64,000 nt of DNA from Thermoplasmata archaeon (GTDB taxonomy: Archaea; Thermoplasmatota; Thermoplasmata; Lutacidiplasmatales; UBA184), in NCBI GenBank assembly GCA_021798195.1, contig JAJZYH010000004.1:8095-72094 (forward strand), written 5' to 3'. The notes beneath the pieces were generated by a model. It did no database searches, was not told the DNA's origin, and worked only from the letters and a program-made list of their open reading frames with translations. This document shows, piece by piece, positions 7,741 to 58,103 of the stretch (the first letter of the stretch is position 1; every line of letters begins with the position of its first letter). The translations under genes were made by a program, and so were the position numbers.

Positions 7741-7815
7741 AGCGGGGTAGGGTAGTCAGGTTATCCCGACGGGCTCATAACCCGTAGATCCATGGTTCAA
7801 ATCCATGCCCCGCTA
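7741..7815 (+). tRNA. tRNA-Met (CAT), initiator type
   Basis: Cloverleaf AGCGGGG..CCCCGCU with an A1:U72 pair. Anticodon stem with three G:C pairs (ACGGG/CCCGU), loop CUCAUAA. T-arm CCAUGGUUCAAAUCCAUGG. TTTCAAATA (TATA-like) lies about 45 nt upstream. Confidence 0.8.
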
Positions 7816-8059
7816 CCCACTCCGAAGTTCAGGGACTTGGAGGTGTTGACCCGACCTCGTGGGCAACAGGGCCATCTCCCGTGGGAACGGGGGTGCGTAC
7901 TTCCAAGGGCCGCCCACGAGGGAGAGAGGAGGGAGAGTACGGCATGTCCTCCGTGTCGGGGTCCCTTTGCGACCGTCCGTATAGGCTCCATATGTCCCAC
8001 AGCCATTTGTGGACGGGCACATGCCGGGGGCAGGGGGGAGCGGATCGGAAGGATCGACC

Positions 8060-8668: not shown

Positions 8669-9064
8669 TCAGGCCAAGGGGCCCTCGCGCGAAGGTGGGC
8701 GGTAGCGGTACCATGCGAACCCGGACACCTGGGACAGGGGGATCCACCCGAAGTGTCGGCTGTCCCGGCTCCGAACCACATTGTCCCCGCGGACATCGAC
8801 CCAGAGTGCTCCCGAGGATTCCCGGATCGCGTGGACCCTCTTGATGAGCCACCGCTCCCGGGATTCCGGGTCCCGGAGCACCACGATCTCGCCGGGCTGA
8901 GGGGGCCGTATCCGGTATTCCTTTCGGTCCACGAACAAGCGATCCCCCGGGAGGAGCGTGGGGGACATGCTGTCGTCGATCACCTCCACCCGCCGACTCC
9001 TCCACCATCGGCTCCACGGGGAGCGCTTCCAGGACCACGTATGTCCAGAGGAGGTTTCCTCCAT
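8669..9064 (-). CDS. sodX: S26-family signal-peptidase-like protein, putative NiSOD maturation protease (SodX-like)
   Basis: Box B DDSMSPTL (Ser nucleophile), box D KRVHAI (Lys general base), box E GDNVVRSRDSRHFG. Divergently adjacent to sodN. Start uncertain; the upstream in-frame ATG at 9112 would add 16 aa. Confidence 0.6.
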   Translation of the reverse strand: MEETSSGHTWSWKRSPWSRWWRSRRVEVIDDSMSPTLLPGDRLFVDRKEYRIRPPQPGEIVVLRDPESRERWLIKRVHAIRESSGALWVDVRGDNVVRSRDSRHFGWIPLSQVSGFAWYRYRPPSREGPLA

Positions 9065-9110
9065 CGCTGGTTCCGCCGGGTTTAAGGCTCCGGGAGTTCT
9101 GCGGGAGGGC

Positions 9111-9638
9111 ATGTTCGGACTAAAGAGCTTCCGGAAGCGATTCTACGCCCTCTCCGACCACCTGCGCCCCCCCCTCCCGGTCTTCGCCCATTGCGACATC
9201 CCCTGCGGAATCTACGACCCGCATGAAGCCCAGATCGCCGCCCTCACGGTCATCCGGATGGATCAGTTGATCGGCGAGCTTCCTCCCCCGGCAGCCGATG
9301 CGAAGGCGGAGGAGAAACACGCGTACACCCACAAGCTCGCCCGGTACACCGCCGTCAAGGAGCAGCATGCGGAGAAGCTCAAGCATGAGATCCGGGTGAT
9401 CTACGGGGATTACATCACGGCGGACATGGTGAAGAAGTTCCCGGAGCTCCCGGACCTCGTCTTCAAGATCTGGAAGCAGGCATCCAAGGCACGCCAGGAG
9501 GTCAACTTGGCAGGCGCCCAGGAACTTCTGGCCAGCGTCCACCAGTTCGCCGAGGTCTTCTGGAAGACCAAGAACGTGGCGACCCGGAAGGTTCCCTCGA
9601 ACCAGAAATCGGGGGGAGAGATCGTCCTCCCGGCATGA
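9111..9638 (+). CDS. sodN: nickel superoxide dismutase precursor (NiSOD)
   Basis: Ni-hook motif HCDIPCGIYDP follows a 26-aa leader (MFGLKSFRKRFYALSDHLRPPLPVFA|HCD...) that would be removed to expose His1. The remainder matches the NiSOD four-helix bundle. Confidence 0.85.
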   Translation: MFGLKSFRKRFYALSDHLRPPLPVFAHCDIPCGIYDPHEAQIAALTVIRMDQLIGELPPPAADAKAEEKHAYTHKLARYTAVKEQHAEKLKHEIRVIYGDYITADMVKKFPELPDLVFKIWKQASKARQEVNLAGAQELLASVHQFAEVFWKTKNVATRKVPSNQKSGGEIVLPA

Positions 9639-35756: not shown

Positions 35757-36311
35757 TCAGGGTGCTGCCGACGGTTTGGATCTTCCGTCGGAGCGTCTTC
35801 GGGACCTCGAGTTCCCCGTGGCACGTCGGACAGCCGGAGGGCGGTGGGGCGAGGTCGCTCGGTAGAAGAGGGAGATGGAGCGCGCGGTTTTTCTTCCCGC
35901 CTCGACACGCACCCCGACGGCGACGAGTTCCTCGGCGCGGACGGGGAGGCCGATGCGGGAGACGAAGGCGGCGAGGTCGCGGGAGGTGAGGTCGTCCTGG
36001 CGGAGGGCGTCGGTGAGGGTGGGGAAGTCGACGGGAGGGAGGGGGAAGGGGCCGTCCTCGACGACGCCCGGTAGGGTAGGGCGAGGGACGGGATGGCCGT
36101 GGCGGGCGAGTTGGGCGTAGAAGGCATGGAGGAGTTGGTCGTCGTGCAGGGCCAATACCTTCCGCTCGAGTGCGGTGCGTTTCTCCGAGGTGAGGATGTC
36201 GAGACGGCCAAGGTAGAGTTCGGTCCGGTTTCGCACGCGGGATCCGTCGCGAAAAGCTCTGGCGACAACCCAGTAATCATGGCCGCGGTTAGGGCAAATC
36301 TCGAGGAACAT
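35757..36311 (-). CDS. transposase N-terminal part (orfA), separated from orfB by a -1 frameshift (programmed slippage or inactivating mutation)
   Basis: MFLEICPNRGHDYWVVARAFRDGSRVRNRTELYLGRLD resembles the N-termini of IS1634-group transposases. The same 5' segment recurs at 38880-39218. Confidence 0.55.
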   Translation of the reverse strand: MFLEICPNRGHDYWVVARAFRDGSRVRNRTELYLGRLDILTSEKRTALERKVLALHDDQLLHAFYAQLARHGHPVPRPTLPGVVEDGPFPLPPVDFPTLTDALRQDDLTSRDLAAFVSRIGLPVRAEELVAVGVRVEAGRKTARSISLFYRATSPHRPPAVRRATGNSRSRRRSDGRSKPSAAP

Positions 36312-36497
36312 GGTACCGGGACAAATGCTCTGGCGACATACCCTCCATTTCGGGTCACCACCGTCGAGATGGCAAGGACTGGCTGGTCCGGCGGCAACCC
36401 CTCGTTTGAAGCTATAGTCCCACAGCCTCGAGGACGCATGTATTTAAATGGGACTGCCGCATTTAAAAGAGAAAAACCTACGTGCTTGAGGTATCCC

Positions 36498-38414
36498 ATG
36501 GTGGTCGGCCTGACACTTTCCAGGCTAGGGAAACGATATGTAGGAACGATTGCCGCAATCGCCTGTGCGCTCATTCTAATCACCGCTGCCAGTCTTGCGC
36601 TTACCCGGACCGCCCCGCCTCCGGCTCCTCCTGCTATAAAGCCGGTCGCCGCATTCGGACCGAAACTCCTTGTCCATGAGCCCGGAGGTCGTAGCGCCCT
36701 TGCCAACAACACCACCATCAACATTCAGATCTTTTCGGCTGTCCCGAACGCGTTTCGTTCAACCGGCCTCCTCTTCTATCCGGTTTCACCACAGGACCAG
36801 TGGACCAATGGGGTAAACGAAGAACTCCTCAATGCCACACTCTTCCCGGGCAACAACACGACGGCCTTCTTCCTCGCTCCATCATTCAATACGATCGCTC
36901 AGGAGTGGACCGTTCTTCTCTCCCACGACCAGGGAAGGAATTTCCCGTCCCTAACCGTTGAGGCCGTGAAAACGGTGAACATGAGCGGCAACCTCTACCT
37001 CTACCAGTATTACAACAATCTCCCTTACAACCCGTTTGATCTCAAGGTAGTCAACCTGAACCAAACGGACCTTGCATTAGGAGGCGCCAGTTGGTTTGAT
37101 GGCACCGGGGTCAATGTTACTGACTACTCTCAAATTATCATGGCAAACCTTGAACTTAACCTGACGCTGGAATTCCCGAGCCACCCGATTCAGGTGGTGC
37201 CCGTACCCCCACCAAACTCCTTTAGAAGCGCCCACCAGATCCCCGCTGAACGTGGCCCGGCAGGCTGTGCTGTGCAAGGCGAGAGTTGTATCTACGAGTA
37301 TTACTATACCTATCCGAGCGTGACTACCAACACGCTGGTCAAGACCACGTTCGCCAACGGAACGTTACCATTGCTGGGTGTTCACATAGGACGGAACGCC
37401 GAAGGGGGCGGGTCAGTGATTGCCCTGAGCGCTGATGTCAATGTGTTGAATGATACCATCGAATTGAATTCTGTCCAACCGTATGAGAACGCTTCCGGAC
37501 AAATCACCACCACAATGAGCACATCCCCCTCGTTCGCGCACGAAGCCAACGTGAGCGTGGGCCAGGCGAATAACCAGTTTGATGCCATTCCCACCGGAAT
37601 TTCCAAGGACCTCGGGAACAACAACTCGGTCTCCTTGAATCGGACGACTGCCATTGTAGGAATCCAGGGCGTGGAGTACGAATTCCAGCACTACAAACGG
37701 GAGACCTACAACTACGTGGATTACTGGGAGAGAATGTGTTGCCCGCGTCCCAACGGTGACTGGGGTTGCTTTACCTATTTGCTTTCACAGACCGTTTCCA
37801 CAGTATATGATGGGCAATACACGGATGGCGAGATTGTCCATGTCAACTCCACGGCCGGCCTAGCCCTCCAGGCGGGGTTCATATCAATCTGGGCCGCCTG
37901 GGTCATTCAGCACACCTTGGCGAACGCAAGCAACGGAAGCGTGACGCTCACTACAAGCGGGACGGGCTCGAGCTACGAAGCCTCGACCATCTGGGCCGAC
38001 ACAAACGGTTATCTAGACGCCTCCAATGCATACAGTCAAGCTGCAAATCTGCTGGGGACCTTCTCCACCGCGCTGGGCCTGGGGCTGGCCATTGTCGATG
38101 CCTCCGCCGCGTTGAATGGAGCGGACTTTGATGCCACAGAGCCGACCGTGGTCGCAGATAGTCTCTCCCTCATTGCGGACACGATTGGAATGGCGGCGTC
38201 CGTATTGAACGCCTTCTCCTCCATCAGTGCGTACACAGGAACGCAGTCGATCACCCTTGGCTACGGATTCAGTAATGTCCCCGAAGCAGGATCAGGATCG
38301 CCATACACAATGGCCTTCTTCGAGAGTCAGAGCCCCGTGAGCTTGAGCGTGAACGGAAACACTTACTCGTTCTTCGCCCCCGAGGACTTTTTGAATGCGA
38401 CGGCGATTGCGTGA
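36498..38414 (+). CDS. secreted/anchored surface glycoprotein (S-layer-like), low-GC cargo gene of the composite element
   Basis: N-terminal hydrophobic anchor/signal (IAAIACALILITAASLALT) and more than 20 N-x-S/T sequons (NNTTIN, NATLFPGNNTT, NVTDYS, NLTLEF, NDTIELNS, NNNSVSLNRTT, NASNGSVTLTT...). The segment GC is visibly about 50% against about 68% for the flanks. An upstream AT-rich TATA-like box (ATTTAAAAG) sits about 30 nt before the ATG. Confidence 0.7.
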   Translation: MVVGLTLSRLGKRYVGTIAAIACALILITAASLALTRTAPPPAPPAIKPVAAFGPKLLVHEPGGRSALANNTTINIQIFSAVPNAFRSTGLLFYPVSPQDQWTNGVNEELLNATLFPGNNTTAFFLAPSFNTIAQEWTVLLSHDQGRNFPSLTVEAVKTVNMSGNLYLYQYYNNLPYNPFDLKVVNLNQTDLALGGASWFDGTGVNVTDYSQIIMANLELNLTLEFPSHPIQVVPVPPPNSFRSAHQIPAERGPAGCAVQGESCIYEYYYTYPSVTTNTLVKTTFANGTLPLLGVHIGRNAEGGGSVIALSADVNVLNDTIELNSVQPYENASGQITTTMSTSPSFAHEANVSVGQANNQFDAIPTGISKDLGNNNSVSLNRTTAIVGIQGVEYEFQHYKRETYNYVDYWERMCCPRPNGDWGCFTYLLSQTVSTVYDGQYTDGEIVHVNSTAGLALQAGFISIWAAWVIQHTLANASNGSVTLTTSGTGSSYEASTIWADTNGYLDASNAYSQAANLLGTFSTALGLGLAIVDASAALNGADFDATEPTVVADSLSLIADTIGMAASVLNAFSSISAYTGTQSITLGYGFSNVPEAGSGSPYTMAFFESQSPVSLSVNGNTYSFFAPEDFLNATAIA

Positions 38415-38561
38415 TATGAAGGGGAAGTGAGCCTTTAGCCCTGCGGCTACTTCCCCCGGGCCCATCTTCGACAAAGCGGCCGGTGCCTTCTCGGAGAACG
38501 TGAGTTGTAGGCACGCCTTGACAAGATTGTGGACACACTCACGTCCTGGATTCCGTGAGAC

Positions 38562-38880
38562 CTACACCACAGGCAGGTAGCGGGTAGCGCCGAGGGCGGT
38601 GAGGACCTCCTCCTGCTTGCCGGAGAGACGGGGCACCCCTTCCCGGATCGATTTCCCCGCGCTCGACCTCACCCACGGCACATTCTCGAGGAGCCGCAGT
38701 GCTTCGGAGAGGCTTTTCTCGGGGAGTTTCCGCTTCAGGGTCCGCTCCGTCCAGCTCCAGAGCAGCCAGGCCGTGTAGAGGACCGTCGCGCTCGCGTACA
38801 TCCGGTCCAACCGGTGCTTCCGGACCGGCTCGAGGTGGAGTTCCCCCTTGCCCGTTCGGAAGACCTTCTCGATCCCCTCG
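38562..38880 (-). pseudogene. C-terminal fragment of an IS4-family transposase gene (remnant)
   Basis: The translation ...RSPSPEGIEKVFRTGKGELHLEPVRKHRLDRMYASATVLYTAWLL matches the IS4-family C-terminal Y-x2-R-x3-E-x6-K signature region. It is truncated abruptly at the junction with the partial IS copy at 38880. Confidence 0.45.
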
Positions 38881-39218
38881 GGCGAGGGACGGGATGGCCG
38901 TGGCGGGCGAGTTGGGCGTAGAAGGCATGGAGGAGTTGGTCGTCGTGCAGGGCCAATACCTTCCGCTCGAGTGCGGTGCGTTTCTCCGAGGTGAGGATGT
39001 CGAGACGGCCAAGGTAGAGTTCGGTCCGGTTTCGCACGCGGGATCCGTCGCGAAAAGCTCTGGCGACAACCCAGTAATCATGGCCGCGGTTAGGGCAAAT
39101 CTCGAGGAACATGGTACCGGGACAAATGCTCTGGCGACATACCCTCCATTTCGGGTCACCACCGTCGAGATGGCAAGGACTGGCTGGTCCGGCGGCAACC
39201 CCTCGTTTGAAGCTATAG
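38880..39218 (-). repeat. partial (about 339 bp) direct copy of the IS right end, including IR-R and the transposase 5' coding region
   Basis: Near-identical to 36080-36417 (ggcgagggacgggatggccgtggcgggcgagttgggcgtagaaggcatgg...ctcgtttgaagctatag). Confidence 0.8.
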
Positions 39219-39226
39219 CGACGCAT
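39219..39226. repeat. target-site duplication, right copy (CGACGCAT)
   Basis: See 34086-34093. Confidence 0.7.
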
Positions 39227-39306
39227 CGGCATCCCCCCCGCAAACTCTTTTATAGCGTCCCCCGTGTGGAACGTGCTACTTCACTCGTGAAGTGGAGGCG
39301 TTCTAC

Positions 39307-39975
39307 ATGCAAAGTGCAATCTCCCTGCCTTCCGCCGTGACCCACCCGGACGAACTCCTCAAGGGAACCACCACGGTGGGCATGGTCTGCAAGGACGGGG
39401 TGGTCATGGCCACCGAGCGCCGGGCCACCGCGGGGACGTTCATCGCCAACAAATCCACCTTCAAGCTGTTCAAGATCGACAACCATCTGGGGATGACCAT
39501 CGCGGGGCTCGTGGGGGATGCCCAGACCCTGGTCCGGTACGCACGGGCGGAGGTCGCCCTGTACCGGCTCCGGCGCAACGCACCCATCAGCGTGGAGGGG
39601 GCCGCCTCGCTCCTCGCCAACATCCTCAACGGGAACCGCTACATGCCGTACTACGCCTGGCTCATCCTGGGCGGCGTGGACATGAAGGGAAGCCACGTCT
39701 ACTCCATCGACCCGGCGGGGGGCAGCATCGAGGACAAGTATGTGTCGGTGGGCAGCGGGTCCAGTTTCGCCTACGGCGTCCTCGAGGAGGCCTACGAGCC
39801 GGACCTCACGCTGAACGAAGGCGTGGACGTCGCCCTCCGGGCGCTCACCGTGGCCATGAAGCGGGATTCCGCGAGCGGCGACGGCTACCTCGTGGCCACC
39901 ATCTCCGAGAAGGAGTACAAGGATTTCACCGAAGAGGACATCAAGCGCCGCCTGAGCAAACTCAAGATCGCCTGA
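39307..39975 (+). CDS. psmB: proteasome subunit beta (Thr-protease precursor)
   Basis: Propeptide followed by TTTVGMVCKDGVVMATERRAT (Thr1 nucleophile). The TATA-like CTTTTATAG lies about 48 nt upstream. An alternative GTG start at 39292 exists. Confidence 0.85.
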   Translation: MQSAISLPSAVTHPDELLKGTTTVGMVCKDGVVMATERRATAGTFIANKSTFKLFKIDNHLGMTIAGLVGDAQTLVRYARAEVALYRLRRNAPISVEGAASLLANILNGNRYMPYYAWLILGGVDMKGSHVYSIDPAGGSIEDKYVSVGSGSSFAYGVLEEAYEPDLTLNEGVDVALRALTVAMKRDSASGDGYLVATISEKEYKDFTEEDIKRRLSKLKIA

Positions 39976-40049
39976 ACGCGAACCGTTTCCCGGGAGCCCC
40001 TGCCCGCAATGGGAAGGGGGCCCCAACCCGTTCTTCCCCCTCTCTCTCA

Positions 40050-48773: not shown

Positions 48774-49627
48774 ACGTCGGGGTCATCCGGAAGGAAACCC
48801 TGGAACTCCGAGGTTCCCGGGAATCCCCGTCGCGCCGCCTGGCCGAGGATCTCCTCAAGGGGTCCCCAGAGCGGCTGGAGGGGGATGGCTTCCCGGACGC
48901 GGTCTTCGCCTCTTGGCCCCACGGGGTGGGGAGGAGGCGGGGGATCGGCGAGGAATCCCGTGCGGGTCCCCCGCCAGAACCGGCCCGCTCGGACCGCCTC
49001 CCGGAGCCGGCGCTCCGTCGCCTGGACGAGCCGGAAGCTCCCCGAGATGCTCCAGCAGAGGAGCCCCGCCTGTCTCCGGATCCACTCCAGGGAGGACGGA
49101 TCGAGCCGGGCGTCGTGGTCCATTGATGCCGCCTCGGGGATCTCCCTTGCACTCCCCAGGGCACGGGGATCCGGACGGGCCCGGTAGACACCGGCGACCC
49201 ACCGTGGGAGCCCGCCGGCCCGCTTCACCAGGGCGTGCGACGCCGCATTCCCCTCCTCCACGGTGAGGCGGACGGTGTGGATGCCCCGCTCCCGCGCCCG
49301 AGCGAGGGCGAACCGTGTGAGGAGGAGGCCCAGTCCCCGCCCCCGGTCCTCCGGGGCGATCCGGATGGCGTTGAGCCAGCCCTCCCCTTCCCCCAGATCC
49401 TCGAGGCGCAGGATGCCCAGGAGAGTCTCTCCCCGGAAGATCCCCAGGACCCAGGGTTGGGCCATCCACTCTTCCAGGTTCGGGAGAAGGTAGTCCGAGG
49501 GGACCGCCCGGGAGAGGAGGTCCCGGGCGGCCAGGAGATCCCCGGGCAGGGTGACCTCTCGGAGGATGAGGTTCCCCTCGGCCTTCCACTGCGTGGAGGT
49601 CTCCGGGGGGGACTTTGGGGCGGTCAC
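48692..49627 (-). CDS. GNAT-family acetyltransferase with a C-terminal extension, translationally coupled to mutL
   Basis: Acetyl-CoA motif DRGRGLGLLLTRFALARA. A candidate GTG start overlaps the mutL TGA stop (GTGA). An alternative ATG at 49465 would leave too short an N-terminus for a GNAT fold. Confidence 0.5.
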   Translation of the reverse strand: MTAPKSPPETSTQWKAEGNLILREVTLPGDLLAARDLLSRAVPSDYLLPNLEEWMAQPWVLGIFRGETLLGILRLEDLGEGEGWLNAIRIAPEDRGRGLGLLLTRFALARARERGIHTVRLTVEEGNAASHALVKRAGGLPRWVAGVYRARPDPRALGSAREIPEAASMDHDARLDPSSLEWIRRQAGLLCWSISGSFRLVQATERRLREAVRAGRFWRGTRTGFLADPPPPPHPVGPRGEDRVREAIPLQPLWGPLEEILGQAARRGFPGTSEFQGFLPDDPDVWEVNPACGLRRGDPWGYRVAVYEVST

Positions 49628-51444
49628 GGACGGTGGAACCACCGGTCGAGGCGTTCCCGGGGGATGGAGACCATGATGGGACGGCCATGGGGGCAGGTGA
49701 AGTTCTCCGGGGTACGGTAGAGCTCCCGGAGCAGGCGGTGGATCTCGTCGGGGGAAAGGACGTCCCCGGCACGGATGGCCATGTGGCAGGCCGTGGTCTT
49801 CCAGATCTCCTCCGGGGCACGTTCCACGGCCTCCCGGGGGAGGTCCGCCGCCAGGTCGTCGAGGAGCGCCGGGACCGATTCCGGCCGGAGCCGGTGGCCC
49901 AGGATGGAGGGGACGGCCCGGACGCGATAGGTCCTCTGGCCGAACGGGTCCACCTCGAAGCCCATCTCCCGGAGGCGTTCCCCATAGAGCTCCCAGGCCT
50001 GCGCCTGGCGTGGGGTGAGCTCCACCTCCCGGGCCTCCAGGAGCTCCTGGCGGGGGACCACGCTCTTCTCCCGGAGACGTTCGAAGACGATCCGTTCGCT
50101 GGCGGCATGCGCGTCGACCAGGACGAGGCTCCCGTCGGGCTGGAGCGACTCGGCCACGATGTAGAGGCGCCCCAGCTGCCCCAGGACGGAGATGGAGGGG
50201 TGCACAGGGCTTCCGGGGACCCAGGCTCCCGGTCCCTCCGGGCGGGCGTTCGCGCCTTCGGGCGGCGAGGGTCGGGAGACCTCCGGGAAGCCCGGAAGGA
50301 ACGCCTCCAGGGGGCGCAGGCGCCCCATGGAGCCCTCCACCTCGGCGGCCAGGAAGGAGTGGGGCGGATCCGGCTCCGCCACCGGTGCCGGGACGGAGAC
50401 CTCCGGGAGGGTCCTCGGCTGGTCCTGGAGCCGCGCCCGGAGGAGGGCCCGTACGTTCTCCCGCAGCTCCAGTTCGCGTTCGAACCGGACCTCCTGCTTC
50501 GTGGGATGCACGTTGACGTCCACCCGGGCCCGATCCGCTTCCAGGTGCAGGACCACGATGGGAAAGCGCCCCCGGGGAAGAAGTCCCTGGTACGCCTCGC
50601 GGATCCCCTGGAGAAGGGGACGGGACTGGATGATCCTCCCGTTCACGCTGAGATAGATCCCGTCGGGCGACCCTCGGGACACCGAAGGGTGGGAGGCCAT
50701 CCCTTCCACCCAGATCCCGGGCCCTCCGGAACCCTGGAGGTCGAAGCATGCGTGGGCGATCTGGGGTCCGAACGTCCGCGCCAGGGCTTCCCGGAGGGAG
50801 GGCACGGAGTCGTGGTGCATGCTCTCCCGGCCATCCACCACGAGGTGGAAGCTCACCTCGGGCCGGGCCAGGTAGAACCGTTCCGCCAGGTGGGAGATGC
50901 GCAGGGTCTCGCTGGCGGGGCTCCGCAGGAACTTCTTCCGCGCCGGGGTGGAATGGAAGAGGTCCCGCACCTCCACGGTGGTCCCCGGGGATCGGGCGGC
51001 GGATTGAAGGGGGCTTGCGGCCCCTCCCCCCACCTCCATCCGAGCGGCGGAGTCCCGGCCGCGGATCCGGGAGGTGATCCGGAGGCGGGCCACCGCGGCG
51101 ATGGCTGCGAGCGCCTCCCCCCGGAACCCCAGGGTGGAGATCGCGTCGAGACCCCGGGGACCTGAAAGCTTGCTCGTGGCGTACCGCTGCACCGCAAGGG
51201 GAAGGTCCTCCGGGACGATGCCATCCCCGTTGTCGGAGACCTCCACCAGGTCGAGGCCCCCCTTTTCGATCCGGATCCCGATCTCGGTGGCCCCCGCATC
51301 CAGGGCGTTCTCCACGAGTTCCTTCACCACCGACGCCGGGCGCTCCACCACCTCCCCGGCGGCGATGAGTCGGATCGTCTCCTCCGGAAGGGCCCGGATG
51401 CGGGGAGCCTCCGTGCCTCGCTCCCCGGGGTCCGGACGGTCCAT
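49624..51444 (-). CDS. mutL: DNA mismatch repair protein MutL
   Basis: GHKL ATPase N-terminus IRALPEETIRLIAAGEVVERPASVVKELVENALDAGAT and a C-terminal dimerisation/endonuclease region. Confidence 0.9.
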   Translation of the reverse strand: MDRPDPGERGTEAPRIRALPEETIRLIAAGEVVERPASVVKELVENALDAGATEIGIRIEKGGLDLVEVSDNGDGIVPEDLPLAVQRYATSKLSGPRGLDAISTLGFRGEALAAIAAVARLRITSRIRGRDSAARMEVGGGAASPLQSAARSPGTTVEVRDLFHSTPARKKFLRSPASETLRISHLAERFYLARPEVSFHLVVDGRESMHHDSVPSLREALARTFGPQIAHACFDLQGSGGPGIWVEGMASHPSVSRGSPDGIYLSVNGRIIQSRPLLQGIREAYQGLLPRGRFPIVVLHLEADRARVDVNVHPTKQEVRFERELELRENVRALLRARLQDQPRTLPEVSVPAPVAEPDPPHSFLAAEVEGSMGRLRPLEAFLPGFPEVSRPSPPEGANARPEGPGAWVPGSPVHPSISVLGQLGRLYIVAESLQPDGSLVLVDAHAASERIVFERLREKSVVPRQELLEAREVELTPRQAQAWELYGERLREMGFEVDPFGQRTYRVRAVPSILGHRLRPESVPALLDDLAADLPREAVERAPEEIWKTTACHMAIRAGDVLSPDEIHRLLRELYRTPENFTCPHGRPIMVSIPRERLDRWFHRP

Positions 51445-51507
51445 CGGGCCGCTGAGGTCCCCCGGGTCCTTGAGCGTTTCCGATAGCGAAGCCCTCTCCG
51501 ACCCCCC

Positions 51508-54120
51508 TCAGCTTCCCTCGGGAGGGTGGGCCGGCTCTCCCCGCCGCAGGCGGGCCAGGACCTGGAGGGCCTCGAGGGGAGAGAGCCGGTCCAGATCCAG
51601 CCGGGAAAGCTCCTCGGCGATCTCCCGGGCCCGCCGGACCTCTGGGTCCTCCACCAGGACGGCCTGGGTGTACCGGGGGGGCGGGTTCCCGGTCCGTCCC
51701 CGGCCAGGGGAGGGGCCGGGGGCCTCCAGTTCCCGTTGGACGCGCCGGGCTTCCTGGAGCACCGGGGCGGGGACCCCGGCGAGCTCCGCCACGTGGATGC
51801 CATAGCTCTTGTCCGTGGCGCCCGGGAGGAGGGTCCGGAGGAACACCACCTCCCCGCGCTCCTCCTTCACGGCGAGGTGGGCGTTCCGCGCCGCGGGCAG
51901 GGACTCCGCGAGCGCGGCGAGCTGATGGTAATGGGTGGCCACGATGGTCCGGGCCCGGACGCGGTCATGGAGGTGATGGACGATGGCCCAGGCGAGGGCG
52001 AGCCCATCGGAGGTGCTGGTCCCCCGCCCCACCTCGTCGAGGAGGATCAGGCTCCGGGGATCCGCGTCCCGGAGGATCTCCGCCACTTCGCTCATCTCCA
52101 CCATGAAGCTGCTCTTGCCCTTCCCGATCTCGTCGGTGAACCCCATCCGCGTGGCGAGGGAGCTCACCCGTCCCATCTCGGCGTACCGGGCCGGGACGAA
52201 GGATCCGGCGTGCGCGAGGACCACGAGGAGCCCCACCTGGCGCATGTAGGTGGACTTCCCGGCCATGTTGGGGCCGGTGAGCACCAGGAGCCGGGTCCCA
52301 TCGGGGGAGAGATCCGTGTCGTTGGGAACGAAATCATGCCCCAGCACGCGCTCCAGGATGGGATGCCGTCCCTCCCGGATCCGCAAGCCCGTTCCCTCGT
52401 TGACCTGCGGCTTCACCCAGTGCCGGTCCCGGGCGATCCGGGCGAAGGTGAGGAGTGCGTCGAGCTCCCCCAGGGCGAGGCTGGTCTCCCGGAGCGGGGC
52501 GGCCTGGGCGTCCACCTGGGCCAGCAGTTCCTCCCAGAGCCGCGTCTCCAGCCCATGGGCCTCTTCCTCCGCCGCGCGGACCTCGGTCTCCCAGCGCAGG
52601 AGCTCCTCGCTGACGAAGCGCTCGGCACCCGCCAGGGTTTGCTTTCTCTGCCAGCGGTCCAGGGGGACCTTCCCCAGTTGGGGGCGGCTCACCTCGAAGA
52701 AGTATCCGAACACCTGGTTGAACCCCACCCGGAGGTTCTTGATCCCCGTGGCCCGCGCCTCCCGCTCCTCGAGCTCCCGCAACGCCTCCTTCGCCGTCCG
52801 CAGACGGGCGTCCAGGGCCGCGAGCTCGGGGAAGCGCTCCGGCCGCAGGACCCCCCCGGGGGCGAGGGAAGGAGGTGGGTCCTCGGGAAGCGATTCCAGG
52901 ATCGTCTGGGAGAGCGGAGAGAGATCCCCGATGCGCCCCAGGATCTGGGCCAGGAGCGGGTCCTCCGAGGCCAGGCGCGCCGCCGCGCTCTGGAGCTCCT
53001 TGAGATGGGCGAGGGATTGGCCCAGGGCCCGCAGGTCCCGGGGGCCCGCCCGCCGCGTCACGATCCGTGTGGTGAGCCGGGAGATGTCCCCCACGCCCTG
53101 GAGGAGGTGCGAGACCTCCACGAGGTCCATCCCGCCGGCGACGAGCCGTTCCACCGCGTTGAGGCGTCCCCGGATCGCCCCCACGTCCGAGAGGGGGGCC
53201 CGGATCCATGCCTCGATGGTCCGGGTGCCCTGGGGGGTGATCCCCTTCCCCAGGACATCGAGGAGGGTCGGGGAGGGCGTGCCCGCCCCCCCCATGGGTT
53301 CGGTGATCTCCAGGTGCCGGAGGCTCTTCACGTCGAGCCGCATCCGCTCTCCGCGCGGGCGGAGTTCCGGGGGCCGGACCACCAGGAAGAGCCGGGGCTG
53401 GGCCCCGCGCACATACGCGGCCAAGGCGCCCAGGGCCCGGGCCCGGATCCCTCCTTCGGGTCCGGCGGGGATCTTCCAGGAGGCCGGAAGGTCGTCGACG
53501 GGAAGCGGAGGAGGTGCGTCCTCGATGCGGGCGCGGGGGAGAAGGACCTTCCAGGCGGCCCGGGGCACCGGACCGTCCTGGGGCGGGAGGAGCACCTCCA
53601 CCGGCTCCAGTGCGGCCACCTCCCGGGCGAGTTCCCCCGCCTCTCCGGCTCCTGCCTCCCGAAGGAATGTCTCTCCCGTGGAGACATCCACCAGGGCCGC
53701 CACGGCTCCCTGGATGGGGTCCTCCCACCATGAGACCAGGAAATTGTTGGCGGCTCCCGGGAGCAGGCCCTCTTCCACCGCCGTCCCGGGCGTCACGATC
53801 CGCGTGACCTCGCGCCGCACGAGCCCCCGGGCGGTGCGGGGGTCCTCCACCTGGTCGCAGATCACCACCCGGTGTCCCTTCCGGATGAGGCGGGCCAGGT
53901 AGCCCTCCACCGTGTGGTAGGGGACCCCGGCCAGAGGGATCCGTTTCCCGTCCCCATCCATCTGGCGGCTGGTGAGGGCCACGTCCGCATCCCGGGAGAG
54001 GATGGCCGCATCCTCCCCGAACGTCTCGAAGAAATCCCCCACCCGGAACAAGAGGAGGTGCCCCGGATACCGCGCCTTGACGGCCTGGTATTGGGCCATC
54101 ATGGGGGAGGGTTCCGCCAT
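51508..54120 (-). CDS. mutS: DNA mismatch repair protein MutS (bacterial MutS1 type)
   Basis: Mismatch-binding domain MMAQYQAVKARYPGHLLLFRVGDFFETFGEDA, Walker A GPNMAGKST, and a C-terminal HTH. Confidence 0.9.
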   Translation of the reverse strand: MAEPSPMMAQYQAVKARYPGHLLLFRVGDFFETFGEDAAILSRDADVALTSRQMDGDGKRIPLAGVPYHTVEGYLARLIRKGHRVVICDQVEDPRTARGLVRREVTRIVTPGTAVEEGLLPGAANNFLVSWWEDPIQGAVAALVDVSTGETFLREAGAGEAGELAREVAALEPVEVLLPPQDGPVPRAAWKVLLPRARIEDAPPPLPVDDLPASWKIPAGPEGGIRARALGALAAYVRGAQPRLFLVVRPPELRPRGERMRLDVKSLRHLEITEPMGGAGTPSPTLLDVLGKGITPQGTRTIEAWIRAPLSDVGAIRGRLNAVERLVAGGMDLVEVSHLLQGVGDISRLTTRIVTRRAGPRDLRALGQSLAHLKELQSAAARLASEDPLLAQILGRIGDLSPLSQTILESLPEDPPPSLAPGGVLRPERFPELAALDARLRTAKEALRELEEREARATGIKNLRVGFNQVFGYFFEVSRPQLGKVPLDRWQRKQTLAGAERFVSEELLRWETEVRAAEEEAHGLETRLWEELLAQVDAQAAPLRETSLALGELDALLTFARIARDRHWVKPQVNEGTGLRIREGRHPILERVLGHDFVPNDTDLSPDGTRLLVLTGPNMAGKSTYMRQVGLLVVLAHAGSFVPARYAEMGRVSSLATRMGFTDEIGKGKSSFMVEMSEVAEILRDADPRSLILLDEVGRGTSTSDGLALAWAIVHHLHDRVRARTIVATHYHQLAALAESLPAARNAHLAVKEERGEVVFLRTLLPGATDKSYGIHVAELAGVPAPVLQEARRVQRELEAPGPSPGRGRTGNPPPRYTQAVLVEDPEVRRAREIAEELSRLDLDRLSPLEALQVLARLRRGEPAHPPEGS

Positions 54121-54296
54121 CTCGGATTGGGACCCGACGGGGGGCCATAGAGTTATCCAGTGAGGGGAGGCGGTCCACCTCCCGGTTTCCGAGTAGGGGG
54201 GATCCCATGGCCCACCGGTCCAAGGGCCCCGGGACCTTCCTCACGGGACGGAGAACGTTCTTGGCGGCGGATGGATGGGCTCCCGAGGGAGCGAGC

Positions 54297-55094
54297 ATGA
54301 CCCGAGAGGGGGCGACGCGGGCCCGGGTCCGAACCCCGAGGGGACCTTGGACGGGGGAAGAGGTCCCCCCGGCTCTTTCGGGGGAGTTCGCCCAATCCCC
54401 CGGGGCCCGGTGGATCCGTCGGACCCGCACCGTCCCCCTTCCTTCCTGGGAGAGCGTCCGACGCCGGGTGGATGCCGGCATCCCGTTCGGGGTCGCCGTA
54501 CGGATCTGGGATGCCAGGGGGCGGACGCTCCTGGTCCGACCCGTTGGAGCGAGGGGGCTGGGGGATGTCTGGATGACCCCGGGGGGAGGCGGCGGACCGG
54601 GGGAACTCCCCGCGGCATCCCTCCGGAGGGAGGTCGAGGAGGAAACGGGGGGGACCCTCCGAGACCCATTCCTCTGGAAGGTGTTCCAGGAGACCGTGCG
54701 TGCCCGCTCAAGGCCCCCGGTACGGTGGTTCTTCCTCCAGTATGTGGCGCAATGGGGAGGAGGGCGACCCCGGCCGCGGGACCGGGGGGAGATCGCCACG
54801 GCCCGATGGTTCCGACGGCTCCCGGCGAACATGATGTGGAGGGAGGATTGGATCCGGGCCCCGCGTCCCCTTGGGCATGGCTCCGGGCCCGGGCCCCGGT
54901 ACGGGATCAACCCAGGAACTGGGGGGTCCGCTCCCGGCAGAGCGTCTGCAGGGCGGCGAACCGTTCCACCATCTGCCGCCGAACGTCCGGCAGATCCGAC
55001 GCGGGTAGGTCCGGGGCGTACCGCAGGTCCCAATCCACGTCGACCCGGCTCTTCAGGAACTCCGGGACGGGAACGTCGGGGTCGTGAGCGATGA
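54297..55094 (+). CDS. Nudix hydrolase with a low-complexity Pro/Gly/Arg-rich tail
   Basis: Nudix box GGGGGPGELPAASLRREVEEETGG (Gx5Ex7REUxEExGU). The tail overlaps the convergent phosphatase-like gene. Confidence 0.6.
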   Translation: MTREGATRARVRTPRGPWTGEEVPPALSGEFAQSPGARWIRRTRTVPLPSWESVRRRVDAGIPFGVAVRIWDARGRTLLVRPVGARGLGDVWMTPGGGGGPGELPAASLRREVEEETGGTLRDPFLWKVFQETVRARSRPPVRWFFLQYVAQWGGGRPRPRDRGEIATARWFRRLPANMMWREDWIRAPRPLGHGSGPGPRYGINPGTGGSAPGRASAGRRTVPPSAAERPADPTRVGPGRTAGPNPRRPGSSGTPGRERRGRER

Positions 55095-55323
55095 GCACCA
55101 CGACGCGCATGAAGCTCAGGAGGACGGGGTCCACGGCTCTCGGGGGGTGATCGGGGATCGGCAGGTCCGCGAGGAGTTCCCGCAGTTGCGGGTGGAAGGA
55201 GGCCGCCGCGCGAAGGCCCGCCGAAGTGGCCCTCCACCGGGGAGGTGCCCGGGCGTTGAAGGCCGACTCGGCGGCCAGGGAAAGGAGGGCGTTGTCCGGG
55301 CAGACAAACAGGAGGGTGGGCAT
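54907..55323 (-). CDS. low-molecular-weight phosphatase / ArsC-like protein with a degenerate P-loop (CPDNALLS instead of CxGNxxRS)
   Basis: MPTLLFVCPDNALLS...DVDWDLRYAPD has an LMW-PTP/ArsC fold layout with the nucleophilic Cys retained but the P-loop Arg lost. 138 aa. Confidence 0.45.
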   Translation of the reverse strand: MPTLLFVCPDNALLSLAAESAFNARAPPRWRATSAGLRAAASFHPQLRELLADLPIPDHPPRAVDPVLLSFMRVVVLIAHDPDVPVPEFLKSRVDVDWDLRYAPDLPASDLPDVRRQMVERFAALQTLCRERTPQFLG

Positions 55324-55762
55324 CGCGGCAACCCATCTGGAACGCCCTACTTCAACGCGCCGCCAGGGAGCGGCGAAGCGGCTTCCGCGTCCCATGTGTT
55401 CCACGGAGCCTCGGGCAGAGTCCGAATGACTCGGGGCCGCGGACGGGAGGTTCATGGCACGGGGCGCGAGGCTCGGGCTGCTGCGCAGAGAGGGACCGAA
55501 GGAGGCCGATCCTCTTGAACAGGCCGGGGGAAATGGCTCTTGACGCGAGGCCCTGACCTTCGAAGGCAGGTCCGGGGCGGAGGGAGCCCAAGAGCCCCGG
55601 GGGTTCAAGAACGAGGGAGCCCCCGGGGGCCCGATCACTCTGGAGGACCGTGGATGTGGTGGGGGTGGGGCCGAAGGGGTGGTCCTTGCGCCTCCGCGTC
55701 GGTCGAAGGCGGGGATGACCCTTGTGCCGGGGAAGGGGCCGGAGCAAAGAACGCTTTCAACG

Positions 55763-56635
55763 TCAGGCGGGGCGTTGGGCTATCACGAGCAGGCGGTGGG
55801 AGGTGACGCGAAGACTCCCCGTGGCCAAGATCCCGTGGTGAATCTCCTCCAGCATGGCACGGTGGCGGGAGACGGAGAAGCCGGGCACCTCCCACGGGAT
55901 GGCCTTAAGGTAGTACACGACAGCGCCCACGTCCAGGAATTCGGTGAAGCCGATCCACTCCTCTTGCCTCCGCACTACGAAACCCGCTCGTGCGATCTCA
56001 TTCGCCAGGGCAGCACTGCTGGAAACGTCGTTGGTGGGCACGCTCGCCTCCGCCCCGAACCGCTCCCTGAGTTCCACGTTGTTGAGCCCTCCCACTTGCT
56101 GAGCGACGAACGATCCCCCCGGTGCGAGGACACGGTGAACCTCCCCGGGATCGAATTCCTCGTGACGGTCGAGCACGAGATCGACCCCCCCATCGGGAAG
56201 CGGAATGCGATTGTCGGGCCCGATGGGTAGGACTTGGACACCGAGGGGAGTTAGACGGCGTCGGGCGACCTCAAGATTCGGCGCGTACCCCTCGGTGGCG
56301 AACGTCTTGCGCGGAAGGGGGGCCATCGAGGAGAGGACCTCGCCGCCTCCCGTCCCCAGATCGAGGAGGCCGGACGCATGGGCGATCCTATCCCGCGCGA
56401 GCGCAGAGTAGTCCCAGGGAGGGTTCTCGTGGCGCCATCGGCCATCCAGCGCCGAGAAGTCCCATCCCGAGAAGGGGGTCCGGGACGCCTCGGATACAAG
56501 TTGGTCGAAGCTCTTGGCGGAGGCGGGCACAGGAGACCCGGAACCGCATCTTGTCCTTAACCTCGTTGAACCGCCGACCCCTTCCCACGCCGGGGAGGCG
56601 GGAAGCGTACCCGGGGGGAACGAGTCTTCTCCCAT
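55763..56635 (-). CDS. class I SAM-dependent methyltransferase
   Basis: Motif I LLDLGTGGGEVL and a downstream acidic residue and motif II in a Rossmann order. The exact start is uncertain. Confidence 0.6.
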   Translation of the reverse strand: MGEDSFPPGTLPASPAWEGVGGSTRLRTRCGSGSPVPASAKSFDQLVSEASRTPFSGWDFSALDGRWRHENPPWDYSALARDRIAHASGLLDLGTGGGEVLSSMAPLPRKTFATEGYAPNLEVARRRLTPLGVQVLPIGPDNRIPLPDGGVDLVLDRHEEFDPGEVHRVLAPGGSFVAQQVGGLNNVELRERFGAEASVPTNDVSSSAALANEIARAGFVVRRQEEWIGFTEFLDVGAVVYYLKAIPWEVPGFSVSRHRAMLEEIHHGILATGSLRVTSHRLLVIAQRPA

Positions 56636-57177
56636 CCCTCGGTCCCCTGCAGGGGCACGGCCTCCCGGGTCCGCATCTCACACGTCCAATGGGCGGGGCT
56701 CGCGAGGACCTCCAGGACGCCCTCGCCCTCGACTTGAGGGTTCCAGCCCTGCCACCCGTGGTAGTAGTCACGCATGCCGTTCCGGGGGACACGATGCGCA
56801 CCCCATTGCCCTCCCATGGGGGCAGAGTTCCTGAGGGATCGCGTGGTGGCCTCAGCAGCTCGGTATGAGCTTGGCCGGGGGCGAGGCGCCCCACACCCTC
56901 GGCACAAGTCGGAAGAGCGGGGCCCCAGGCACCGAGCGAGGACCTGCCCAAGGGATCAGCCCGAGGGATAGGTCCCAACGTGGACAAGGGCCGCGCCAAT
57001 GTCCGAGGGCGACGGGCAATGAAGAACGGGGAGGGCGAGCTCGGGCACCCATCCAGTGGGTGGGAGGTGGGGTTCCCTTTGGGGGGAACGGATGGGATCC
57101 TCCCCAGGGGTCGGGAACCTGCCTTGGCCCCTCACACGGTGGGTCCACCGGACGATCTTTCGGTGACCTCCCTCGGG

Positions 57178-57259
57178 CGCTGAGGGGGAGATTCGAACTC
57201 CCGTGGCTGACGCCACCGGTTTTCAAGACCGGCGCCCTACCAGGCTAGGCTACCTCAGC
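57178..57259 (-). tRNA. tRNA-Ser (TGA)
   Basis: GCUGAGG acceptor, anticodon loop CUUGAAA, a 13-nt variable arm, T-arm GGGAGUUCGAAUCUCCC, discriminator G. Confidence 0.75.
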
Positions 57260-57308
57260 GCGTGGGCCCGGCACGGGAGCGGACCACATTAATGTGTGGC
57301 CCGAGGAG

Positions 57309-57409
57309 TGCAGGCGCCGGGACTTTCGCCCCCCACCGGACCGGTGCGGGGTTTCGAACCCGGGTAGTCAGCTTGGAAGGCTGAAATCCTACCACTAGAT
57401 TACGCCTGC
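57309..57409 (-). tRNA. tRNA-Gly (TCC) interrupted by a putative ~30-nt non-canonical intron in the 3' strand of the T-stem
   Basis: Removing the minus-strand 30-mer CGCACCGGTCCGGTGGGGGGCGAAAGTCCC (57348..57319) gives a perfect 71-nt cloverleaf: acceptor GCAGGCG/CGCCUGC, anticodon stem UCAGC/GCUGA with loop CUUCCAA, T-arm CCGGG-UUCGAAA-CCCGG, discriminator A. Confidence 0.55.
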
Positions 57410-57443
57410 CTCTCCGGGGCCGCCGGCGCATGAGCCGAAGGGG

Positions 57444-58070
57444 TTAAAGGTTGTTCGCCGCGGGGCGGCCCGAAGGCCCTGCGCTCCCCTTGCCGGGCAT
57501 GTGGTGCGGGCCGGATCCGGGAAGGTCCGTGAGCGCCACAAGCTCCAGGGCAAGGAGTTCCCACCGTTCCGGGGGGACCGATCGGAGATCCGCGGAGGAA
57601 AAGCCGAGCCGCGCCATGGTGCGCTCCGAGGGCGCCCTGGGGAACGCCTCCGGATCGGGCTCAAGGTTCAGGGCCTCCAGGAGGGGGGAGGCCCACTCCC
57701 CGGGAGAGGTCACCACCACGAAGGAAAGGCTGTCTTCCCGTAGGCCCACCCTCCCCAGGGCGGGGGAGAGCTGGTCCCAACCCGCGAGGTAGAGGGCGAG
57801 TTCGGCGCCCGGGTCGGTGAGGTGGGCCCTTCCCTCCTGTCGGGCCCTCTCCGCATGGAGGACCGCGGACGCAAGGTGGCGCGCTCCCGCCACGGAGTCC
57901 GCATCCAGAAGCTGCGCCCACCCCTTCCCTTCCTCCCCCGCCCGGGATCGGAGCCATCTCTGGAGCCCGTCCAGGAGCTCCAGTGGGTTCCTCTGATCGC
58001 CGGGAGCCATCCGGGCGCCCAACGCCACGTACTCCTCGGGCGCGCCCGGGAACTCGGCCTGGGAGGTCAT
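57444..58070 (-). CDS. hypothetical protein
   Basis: Sense-oriented ORF with coding-like composition. No recognisable domain. Confidence 0.35.
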   Translation of the reverse strand: MTSQAEFPGAPEEYVALGARMAPGDQRNPLELLDGLQRWLRSRAGEEGKGWAQLLDADSVAGARHLASAVLHAERARQEGRAHLTDPGAELALYLAGWDQLSPALGRVGLREDSLSFVVVTSPGEWASPLLEALNLEPDPEAFPRAPSERTMARLGFSSADLRSVPPERWELLALELVALTDLPGSGPHHMPGKGSAGPSGRPAANNL

Positions 58071-58103
58071 GGATGGCGCGGCCTGGGGGGGCACCGTCCT
58101 CCC

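Follow-up and report, generated by a model that had tools for sequence, protein, structure and literature searches.

A predicted strict bulge-helix-bulge intron in the T-loop of tRNA-Gly(UCC) in Lutacidiplasmatales-like Thermoplasmata

Introduction

Archaeal introns of bulge-helix-bulge (BHB) structure at T-loop positions of tRNAs are known (PMC6379350), and the closest described cases are those inserted between positions 59 and 60 of pre-tRNA-Pro(GGG) and pre-tRNA-Cys(GCA) in ARMAN-2, Ca. Micrarchaeum acidiphilum (Fujishima et al. 2011, PMC3239211). Here we analyze a tRNA-Gly(UCC) gene encoded on the minus strand of a 64-kb stretch of Thermoplasmata DNA (64,000 nt of contig JAJZYH010000004.1, hereafter the window), which very probably carries a 30-nt BHB intron at the same 59/60 site. 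Like the ARMAN-2 introns, this intron is short and its removal would depend on the splicing endonuclease EndA, and like that of ARMAN-2 tRNA-Pro it displays the strict motif hBHBh' (outer helix h, central helix H and inner helix h', with two bulges between them), whereas the ARMAN-2 tRNA-Cys intron has the relaxed hBH motif, and both ARMAN-2 genes belong to other isotypes. The tRNA-Cys 59/60 intron of ARMAN-2 has been cleaved in vitro. The genomic settings are also different: ARMAN-2 is a DPANN archaeon with a broad-specificity epsilon2 endonuclease and 56% of its tRNA genes disrupted, whereas the present host belongs to the Thermoplasmata, has cultured relatives with a strict alpha'2 enzyme, and contains a single intron conserved throughout its clade.

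A second group of comparable introns is found in the Thermoproteales and other Thermoproteota, where BHB introns lie outside position 37/38, including in the T-arm, and are likewise missed or mis-called by generic tRNA finders (Marck & Grosjean 2003; Sugahara 2008, both as cited in PMC4033280 and PMC8450103). The thermoproteotal introns are processed by an (alpha-beta)2 EndA with a Crenarchaea-specific loop, many of them form relaxed HBh' or hBH motifs, and a gene may contain up to three of them (0.84 per gene on average); in contrast, the tRNA-Gly(UCC) gene in the window has a strict motif, a single intron and a host from a different phylum. The canonical 37/38 BHB introns, such as those of tRNA-Trp, tRNA-Met and tRNA-Gln in Haloferax and of tRNA-Gly(UCC) in 15 loci described below, share with it the identical 3-4-3 motif (bulges of 3 nt around a central helix of 4 bp), the cut rule and the presumed enzymes; however, their central helix is formed by anticodon-loop positions 32-35, whereas here it is formed by T-loop positions 54-57.

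The type of endonuclease and the permitted type of motif are linked: the alpha4 and alpha'2 enzymes depend on the strict 3-4-3 form, while those of the (alpha-beta)2 and epsilon2 types cut relaxed motifs as well (PMC3239211, PMC5829648, PMC12397907). The Thermoplasmatales are among the orders with alpha'2 enzymes (PMC5829648). According to reviews, a single, canonically placed intron is what the tRNA genes of euryarchaea contain (PMC4090602), and no archaeon with an alpha2 enzyme other than K. cryptofilum has non-canonical introns (PMC4033280). The tRNAscan-SE 2.0 survey counted 25 non-canonical introns in 6970 euryarchaeal tRNA genes, of which six come from three genomes of Methanomassiliicoccales, where one gene has two introns, and one from five genomes of Thermoplasmatales (PMC8450103 Table S7). 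These counts concern the same class, Thermoplasmata, and indicate the same rarity, but they are given without positions, isotypes or conservation, and the survey does not include the Lutacidiplasmatales. Apart from them, our literature search found no paper on a T-loop intron in Thermoplasmata or Lutacidiplasmatales. Thus, the arrangement is known but rare, and both the intron itself and its conservation in the Lutacidiplasmatales were found in no paper.

Results

A strict BHB motif in the T-arm of pre-tRNA-Gly(UCC)

The minus strand from 57409 to 57309 reads GCAGGCGTAATCTAGTGGTAGGATTTCAGCCTTCCAAGCTGACTACCCGGGTTCGAA-ACCCCGCACCGGTCCGGTGGGGGGCGAAAG-TCCCGGCGCCTGCA (exon 1, intron and exon 2, respectively), and the corresponding pre-tRNA is GCAGGCG UA AUCU AGUGGUA GGAU U UCAGC CUUCCAA GCUGA CUAC CCGGG UUCGAA - ACCCCGCACCGGUCCGGUGGGGGGCGAAAG - U CCCGG CGCCUGC A. 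Both the minimum free energy and the centroid structure of this 101-mer, predicted without constraints, are a strict 3-4-3 hBHBh' (-51.5 kcal/mol, z = -3.7 relative to shuffled sequences), and the fold is unchanged when the flanks are included. In pre-tRNA numbering, the outer helix is the T-stem (C47-G51 with C89-G93), the central 4-bp helix pairs the T-loop UUCG (U52-G55) with an intronic CGAA (C82-A85), the two 3-nt bulges are A56-A58 and A86-U88, and the inner helix (C59-C62 with G78-G81) is capped by a hairpin. A strict BHB in register was obtained in only 0.33% of shuffles of the window's intron.

In each bulge, the archaeal splicing endonuclease cleaves between the second and third nucleotides. 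Application of this rule to the BHB fold assigns the intron to 57352..57323, that is, to the T-loop between positions 59 and 60. The same rule, checked on the canonical 37/38 introns of two orthologous genes (loci L001 and L005), restores the anticodon loop CUUCCAA of the intron-less genes. Excision of the predicted intron yields a 71-nt perfect cloverleaf with the T-loop TTCGAAT (UUCGAAU) and the junction GGGUUCGAA|UCCCGGCG, and the 59/60 placement (GGGUUCGAA|...|UCCCGG) is the only register that gives U60 as in the intron-less orthologues. We estimate at roughly nine in ten the probability that this tRNA-Gly(UCC) gene is functional and that its T-loop is interrupted, between positions 59 and 60, by an archaeal BHB intron of 30 nt. 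The features of the gene and its anchors in the neighborhood are listed in Table 1.

An initial annotation of this DNA, made from the sequence before any comparison, had proposed that the tRNA-Gly(UCC) is split by a 30-nt non-canonically placed archaeal intron and that removal of a 30-mer produces a perfect Gly(UCC) cloverleaf; both proposals are supported, the excision product having 71 nt. Its details require revision. The insertion was assigned to the 3' strand of the T-stem, whereas the BHB cuts fall in the T-loop; the mature T-loop was given as UUCGAAA instead of the predicted UUCGAAU; and the hairpin within the insert, described as 6 bp (CACCGG-TC-CGGTG), actually has 5 bp and a 3-nt loop (CACCG/CGGUG). 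A relaxed hBH or HBh' motif was also put forward for testing, but the bulges that would be missing or irregular in an hBH, HBh' or BHL motif are both present and exactly 3 nt long in the window as well as in the orthologues, so the junction fold is a strict hBHBh'.

Table 1. Predicted elements of the tRNA-Gly(UCC) gene in the window and its flanking anchors.
Feature	Position	Strand	Basis or remark
Complete pre-tRNA-Gly(UCC) gene, 101 nt	57309..57409	-	Discriminator A; CCA not encoded
Exon 1, tRNA positions 1-59	57353..57409	-	Acceptor 5' strand, D-arm, anticodon arm, T-stem 5' strand CCGGG, T-loop UUCGAA
Anticodon TCC (UCC)	57375..57377	-	ARAGORN call and cloverleaf reading
Predicted intron, 30 nt, ACCCCGCACCGGTCCGGTGGGGGGCGAAAG, between positions 59 and 60	57323..57352	-	BHB geometry
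Exon 2: U60, T-stem 3' strand CCCGG, acceptor 3' strand CGCCUGC, A73	57309..57322	-	Cloverleaf; no variation in alignment
Central BHB helix H, 5' strand UUCG (T-loop 54-57)	57355..57358	-	Paired to the intronic CGAA, 57325..57328
Central BHB helix H, 3' strand CGAA (intron)	57325..57328	-	Predicted fold; CGRR in orthologues
5' bulge AAA (A58, A59, first intron nt)	57352..57354	-	Predicted 5' cut 57353/57352, after second bulge nt
3' bulge AGU (last two intron nt and U60)	57322..57324	-	Predicted 3' cut 57323/57322
Inner helix h' (CCCC/GGGG) closing 5-bp hairpin CACCG-GUC-CGGUG	57329..57351	-	Predicted fold and compensatory changes
Candidate TATA-like element CTTTAA, with GAACAA before it	57444..57449 (-40..-35)	-	Overlaps stop codon of upstream Cgi121-like gene
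Intact tRNA-Ser(UGA), synteny marker	57175..57260	-	48 nt downstream of tRNA-Gly; ARAGORN, Rfam
Cgi121-like (KEOPS subunit) gene, upstream synteny anchor	57444..58094	-	Pfam PF08617, weak; syntenic in 14 loci

Conservation of the intron across Thermoplasmata

A collection of species-representative genomes was scanned with a query composed of the T-arm and acceptor sequences with a variable gap between them, which returned 88 loci: 74 tRNA-Gly(UCC) genes from genomes labelled Thermoplasmata, Methanomassiliicoccales or Thermoplasmatota metagenome-assembled genomes (MAGs), 11 chance matches in bacterial genes, two 3' fragments and one Woesearchaeota gene. All four intron states are found in tRNA-Gly(UCC) across the class Thermoplasmata: 42 of the 74 genes are intron-less, 15 contain an intron at 37/38 only, 15 have a 25-30-nt insert at 59/60 only, and two have both. 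The T-arm/acceptor sequence produced by excision, GGGTTCGAATCCCGG, is identical to that of all 57 orthologues without a T-loop intron, and the 42 intron-less orthologues match the predicted spliced sequence exactly. Since all 57 genes read TTCGAAT, U60 is assigned to exon 2.

The BHB motif is retained wherever the T-loop intron occurs. Bulges of the forms AA+N and NN+U are kept in all 17 intron-bearing orthologues; the 5' bulge is AA+A or AA+U and the third nucleotide of the 3' bulge is U in 18 of 18 sequences. A fully paired UUCG/CGRR helix is present in 16 of the 17 orthologues, where A/G exchanges preserve U-A or U-G pairs. The inner helix remains in register with at least 3 bp in most orthologues, even though its sequence varies widely (CCCC/GGGG, CGC/GCG, CUC/GGG, CAG/CUG, UCCGGG/CCCGGG, GAUCC/GGGUC).

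In a MAFFT alignment of 16 pre-tRNAs, the exons are nearly invariant and the intron interior diverges. Standard pairs occupy 98.1% of the cells of the predicted structure vs. 32-45% when the partners are slid by one to three columns; the acceptor, D, anticodon and T stems, the last of which is the outer helix h, are 100% paired, and the central helix is paired in 98.4% of cells. Double-sided changes occur in 12 cells, the covariation score is 0.126 vs. 0.072, and none of 500 shuffles attained the observed paired fraction, double-change count or covariation score. Compensatory changes affect the inner-helix pairs 60:80, 61:79 and 62:78.

The two genes with both introns, at 7790-7930 of locus L005 and at about 484-620 (minus strand) of locus L077, contain two strict BHB introns, at 37/38 (29-30 nt) and at 59/60 (29 nt), and both are missed by Rfam. 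They come from Methanomassiliicoccales-type genomes of ~50% GC, and therefore the T-loop site is occupied in a second, distant lineage of Thermoplasmata. This arrangement could be the two-intron gene counted in the tRNAscan-SE 2.0 survey. The canonical 37/38 intron on its own was observed in tRNA-Gly(UCC) of 15 Methanomassiliicoccales/Thermoplasmata genomes (loci L001, L012, L013, L017, L019, L027, L046, L048, L049, L061, L063, L067, L073, L076 and L083). In the Woesearchaeota MAG QMQO01000004.1 (DPANN; locus L044, 7460-7625), the T-arm and acceptor are identical, and a 17-nt BHB-like insert is found at 59/60 (U-UGU-AUUA-ACA-CGAA-AG); more long insertions lie upstream, after GCAGGCGUA, and this tRNA is probably multiply disrupted.

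Flanking sequences of the gene

An A/T-rich block of the form AAAG-N-TTA is present at about -55 to -35 in all orthologues, amid DNA of otherwise ~70% GC; the window's copy is GAACAACCTTTAA at -46..-35. The block is compatible with an archaeal BRE/TATA element and may serve as the promoter of the gene. The 5' leader of the tRNA-Gly (57410-57434) is complementary to its 3' trailer (57284-57308; GGCCCCGGAGAG and CUCCUCGGGCC, respectively), which lengthens the acceptor helix in the fold, and a similar complementarity occurs in several orthologues. Overall, however, native leader-trailer pairs exceed mismatched ones in stability only slightly (-24.2 vs. -20.5 kcal/mol, sd 5.7), and the pairing was discarded as not convincing.

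What generic tRNA finders report

ARAGORN reports a 72-nt intron-less tRNA-Gly(tcc) at 57338..57409, and the Rfam model RF00005 matches 57339..57409 with 43.8 bits, leaving six positions non-standard, which corresponds to roughly three mispaired base pairs located in the acceptor and T-stem. With the same model, 66.6 and 63.0 bits are obtained for the other two tRNAs in the window. Across the orthologues, the intron-bearing genes score 29-44 bits or are missed (7 of 17), vs. 63-72 bits for the intron-less ones. The mis-calling of this gene by standard scans, which the initial annotation had anticipated, is thus seen in practice as a wrong intron-less reading of 71-72 nt. An Rfam search of the 64-kb window at E<=1 detected no further hidden or disrupted tRNAs.

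Proposed processing

In the proposed precursor, the 4-bp central helix would arise from pairing of U54-G57 with the CGAA close to the intron's 3' end and would be flanked by the bulges A58-A59-A(intron) and A-G(intron)-U60, with the T-stem as the outer helix and CCCC/GGGG plus its hairpin as the inner one. EndA would cleave both bulges behind their second nucleotide, and an RtcB-type RNA ligase would join the exons, regenerating the T-loop UUCGAAU and a perfect cloverleaf and releasing the intron, probably in circular form. Because the T-loop is absent before splicing, modification of the T-loop and formation of the D/T-loop elbow would have to come afterwards. Transcription, cleavage by EndA, ligation and the order of these steps are all inferred. 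The enzyme is presumably of the strict alpha'2 type, as reported for the Thermoplasmatales, and any archaeal EndA type should accept the motif because it is strict. BHBs located in rRNA precursors and in an mRNA 5' UTR are likewise substrates of the Haloferax endonuclease (PMC7714728); thus, a BHB can work outside the anticodon loop.

Other intron classes agree poorly with the insert. The introns that act as box C/D guides (tRNA-Trp type) are marked by a C box (RUGAUGA) and a D box (CUGA); the 30-nt intron contains neither UGAUGA nor CUGA and is too short. Group I tRNA introns have a ribozyme core of >200 nt and usually interrupt the anticodon loop in bacteria or organelles; the insert has 30 nt, and the window has no Rfam intron match at E<=1.

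Several observations weigh against a functional T-loop intron or qualify it. Among the orthologues, the central helix of L040 has a U-U at its outer pair, a minor relaxation of the motif, and the inner helix of L066 is interrupted. The genome scan covered genes with this T-arm and acceptor, so that a second tRNA-Gly(UCC) with another T-arm or acceptor would escape the query. Neither EndA nor RtcB was found in the 64-kb window by Pfam scans of ~45 ORFs; tblastn of the fetched loci gave no match either, but its query, an EndA sequence of M. jannaschii, was unverified and the result is uninformative. Finally, alpha4 and alpha'2 enzymes act, according to reviews, on strict BHBs "at the canonical position" (PMC4090602); should the enzyme of this lineage be of the alpha'2 type, that it acts on a T-loop BHB is an assumption.

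Alternative explanations

The same 101 nt can be divided in another way. In the register of the initial annotation, the intron would be CGCACC...GTCCC, inserted into the 3' strand of the T-stem at about 63/64, and the mature T-loop would read UUCGAAA. Four registers with CCC at both junctions give this one product, a perfect cloverleaf with A60, whereas the BHB register gives U60; they are workable only in this window because its intron begins with ACCC, mimicking the UCCC of exon 2. In 7 of the 15 clade orthologues, however, the first intron nucleotide is U and the bases after it are unrelated (e.g., TCGCGG, TTCCGG), and the same division would replace the T-stem CCC by non-pairing bases. In addition, it would cut the predicted fold within helices rather than in bulges, and it conflicts with the U60, rather than A60, of all 57 orthologues that have no T-loop intron. 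We consider this register very unlikely. The retention of the insert in a mature tRNA with an extended, irregular T-arm is extremely unlikely: UUCG is base-paired in the precursor, which would abolish the T-loop and the D/T-loop elbow, and the regeneration of a canonical T-loop by the cut sites of the conserved 3-4-3 BHB would have no explanation unless these sites are used for splicing.

The low-scoring, mispaired reading obtained by ARAGORN and Rfam is what would be expected of a decayed tRNA-Gly with a damaged 3' half, or of a gene broken by a random insertion. Nevertheless, a perfect exon 2 follows exactly 30 nt downstream, and the upstream A/T-rich block is conserved. The split gene, moreover, has the same gene neighborhood in a further 15 species-level genomes, so that the split state is conserved in 16 genomes, in which the exons are near-invariant and the intron evolves under structural constraint with compensatory changes. 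The T-arm plus acceptor query detected no second, intron-less match in the 15 intron-bearing assemblies, including contigs of 0.9-1.66 Mb. The pseudogene check proposed in the initial annotation thus favors an intact gene, and decay has only a very small probability. An assembly or binning artefact, e.g., a chimeric join inside the tRNA, deserves a thought given that tRNA genes are frequent break points in metagenomes and that the contigs of L004 and L020 end inside this tRNA. On the other hand, seven independent assemblies, drawn from Logan, ENA and NCBI (the last with three MAGs), represent the window's species (99.4-99.9% identical, contigs up to 126 kb), and in six of them the pre-tRNA is identical, while L094 has one single-nucleotide polymorphism in the apical hairpin, outside the BHB; and orthologues are located on long-read contigs of up to 1.66 Mb. 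The chance of an artefact is practically negligible. We therefore retain the spliced 59/60 intron as the explanation of the split gene.

Genomic context and lineage

The gene order cdc48-orf-MBL-cgi121-tRNA-Gly-tRNA-Ser-mutS, where MBL encodes a metallo-beta-lactamase, is common to the window and the intron-bearing loci. The encoded proteins show local tblastn identities of ~81% for Cdc48, ~70% for MBL, ~50% for MutS and 40-47% for Cgi121, and the window is thus a rather distant member of the same clade. The Gly-Ser tRNA pair is present in all 15 clade orthologues, with tRNA-Ser(UGA) located ~65-135 nt downstream. A homologue search with the Cgi121-like protein gave three matches, too few for taxonomy. 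The syntenic intron-bearing orthologues are all labelled as Thermoplasmata MAGs, and two of them, SubAcS15-25 (L051) and SubAcS10-22 (L066), have been published as Lutacidiplasmatales. The Lutacidiplasmatales (formerly TMEG) have a GC content of ~69% (PMC9287336); it is 65-72% in the window, outside one low-GC island at 36-40 kb, and 65-76% in the 15 loci. By its gene order and relatives, the genome is that of an uncultured, GC-rich soil member of the Thermoplasmata, Lutacidiplasmatales-like in affinity. Two other origins were dismissed on the basis of the genome scan and synteny: the Thermoproteota, to which the initial annotation had taken the intron as a possible clue, and the haloarchaea, suggested by the ~69% GC content and the presence of MutS and MutL.

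The genes for bacterial-type MutS and MutL (49624-54120, minus strand) adjoin the tRNA cluster, and their pairing with the tRNA genes is kept across the clade. In the window, tRNA-Ser and mutS are separated by ~3 kb (54120-57175) that include, besides small ORFs, a gene resembling methyltransferases (55763-56635, minus strand) and a NUDIX gene, which the sister assemblies call on the plus strand. Among the relatives that were checked (e.g., L007, L064 and L066), mutS begins <150 nt past tRNA-Ser. This segment is an insertion beside the tRNA pair in the window's lineage.

Other features of the window

In base composition, the window has a single marked island, the low-GC stretch at ~36000-40000 (56-62% GC vs. 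~65-72% elsewhere). It includes a 773-aa ORF (36093-38414, plus strand) with no Pfam match, the neighboring ORFs are also without a match, and the stretch may represent foreign DNA or a fast-evolving surface protein. A nickel superoxide dismutase gene (Sod_Ni, E = 6.6e-41; 8958-9638, plus strand), not expected in an archaeal window, adjoins a universal stress protein gene and fits the aerobic lifestyle proposed for the Lutacidiplasmatales. Two successive thymidylate-kinase-like ORFs are located at 383-2054 (plus strand); their starts are probably over-extended, since the listed coordinates overlap. An initiator-type tRNA-Met at 7741-7815 (plus strand), which has A1:U72 and an anticodon stem closed by three G-C pairs, was the first sign, obtained with Rfam, that the window is archaeal.

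Discussion

For genome annotation, the predicted intron means that generic tools such as ARAGORN and the Rfam tRNA model assign a wrong 3' half to this gene. The genomes of this soil archaeal order may thereby seem to lack tRNA-Gly(UCC) or to hold a defective one, which bears on statements about their tRNA complement and completeness. The intron also provides a simple marker character for the Lutacidiplasmatales-like clade.

Two selective reasons for keeping a T-loop intron are possible. The intron may force splicing to precede T-loop modification, or it may split the T-arm/acceptor segment that is used by integrating elements as an attachment site. With regard to the latter, an intact tRNA-Gly(UCC) on contig JBGPNV010000003.1 (L050, 5557-5645) has its last 32 nt (CGATGACCCGGGTTCGAATCCCGGCGCCTGCA) directly repeated 2,958 nt downstream (L075, 575-603), and in another MAG (L014 and L074) the 32-nt repeat lies on a different contig than the intact tRNA-Gly(UCC). 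These repeats look like the attL/attR sites of an integrated element or its remnant, and both MAGs are Thermoplasmata without the T-loop intron. No integrase domain was found in the ORFs scanned around the L050/L075 duplicates and beside the intact L014 tRNA, L074 being outside that scan, and the 3'-terminal 25 nt of the tRNA have no exact match in IMG/VR viral contigs. Attachment-site-like duplicates occur in 0 of 17 intron-bearing and 2 of 57 other genomes, which carries no statistical signal, and the proposal of a split integration target gained no support.

The tRNA-Gly(UCC) intron provides a clean, comparatively validated example of a non-canonical intron outside TACK and DPANN, where such introns are rare and where, according to reviews, 37/38 is the sole intron site. 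Its strict motif fits the accepted co-evolution of intron motif and endonuclease type, and at the same time refines that view: if the enzyme proves to be of the alpha'2 type, the limit would be set by the strictness of the motif and not by its position. A broader scenario, in which the T-loop intron is ancient and selectively maintained across the clade, arose independently or was retained at this exact site in some Methanomassiliicoccales, and is processed by a strict alpha'2 endonuclease, is speculative and in our view rather improbable. If it were true, this intron would be the clearest natural case of strict enzymes tolerating any position, given a perfect BHB.

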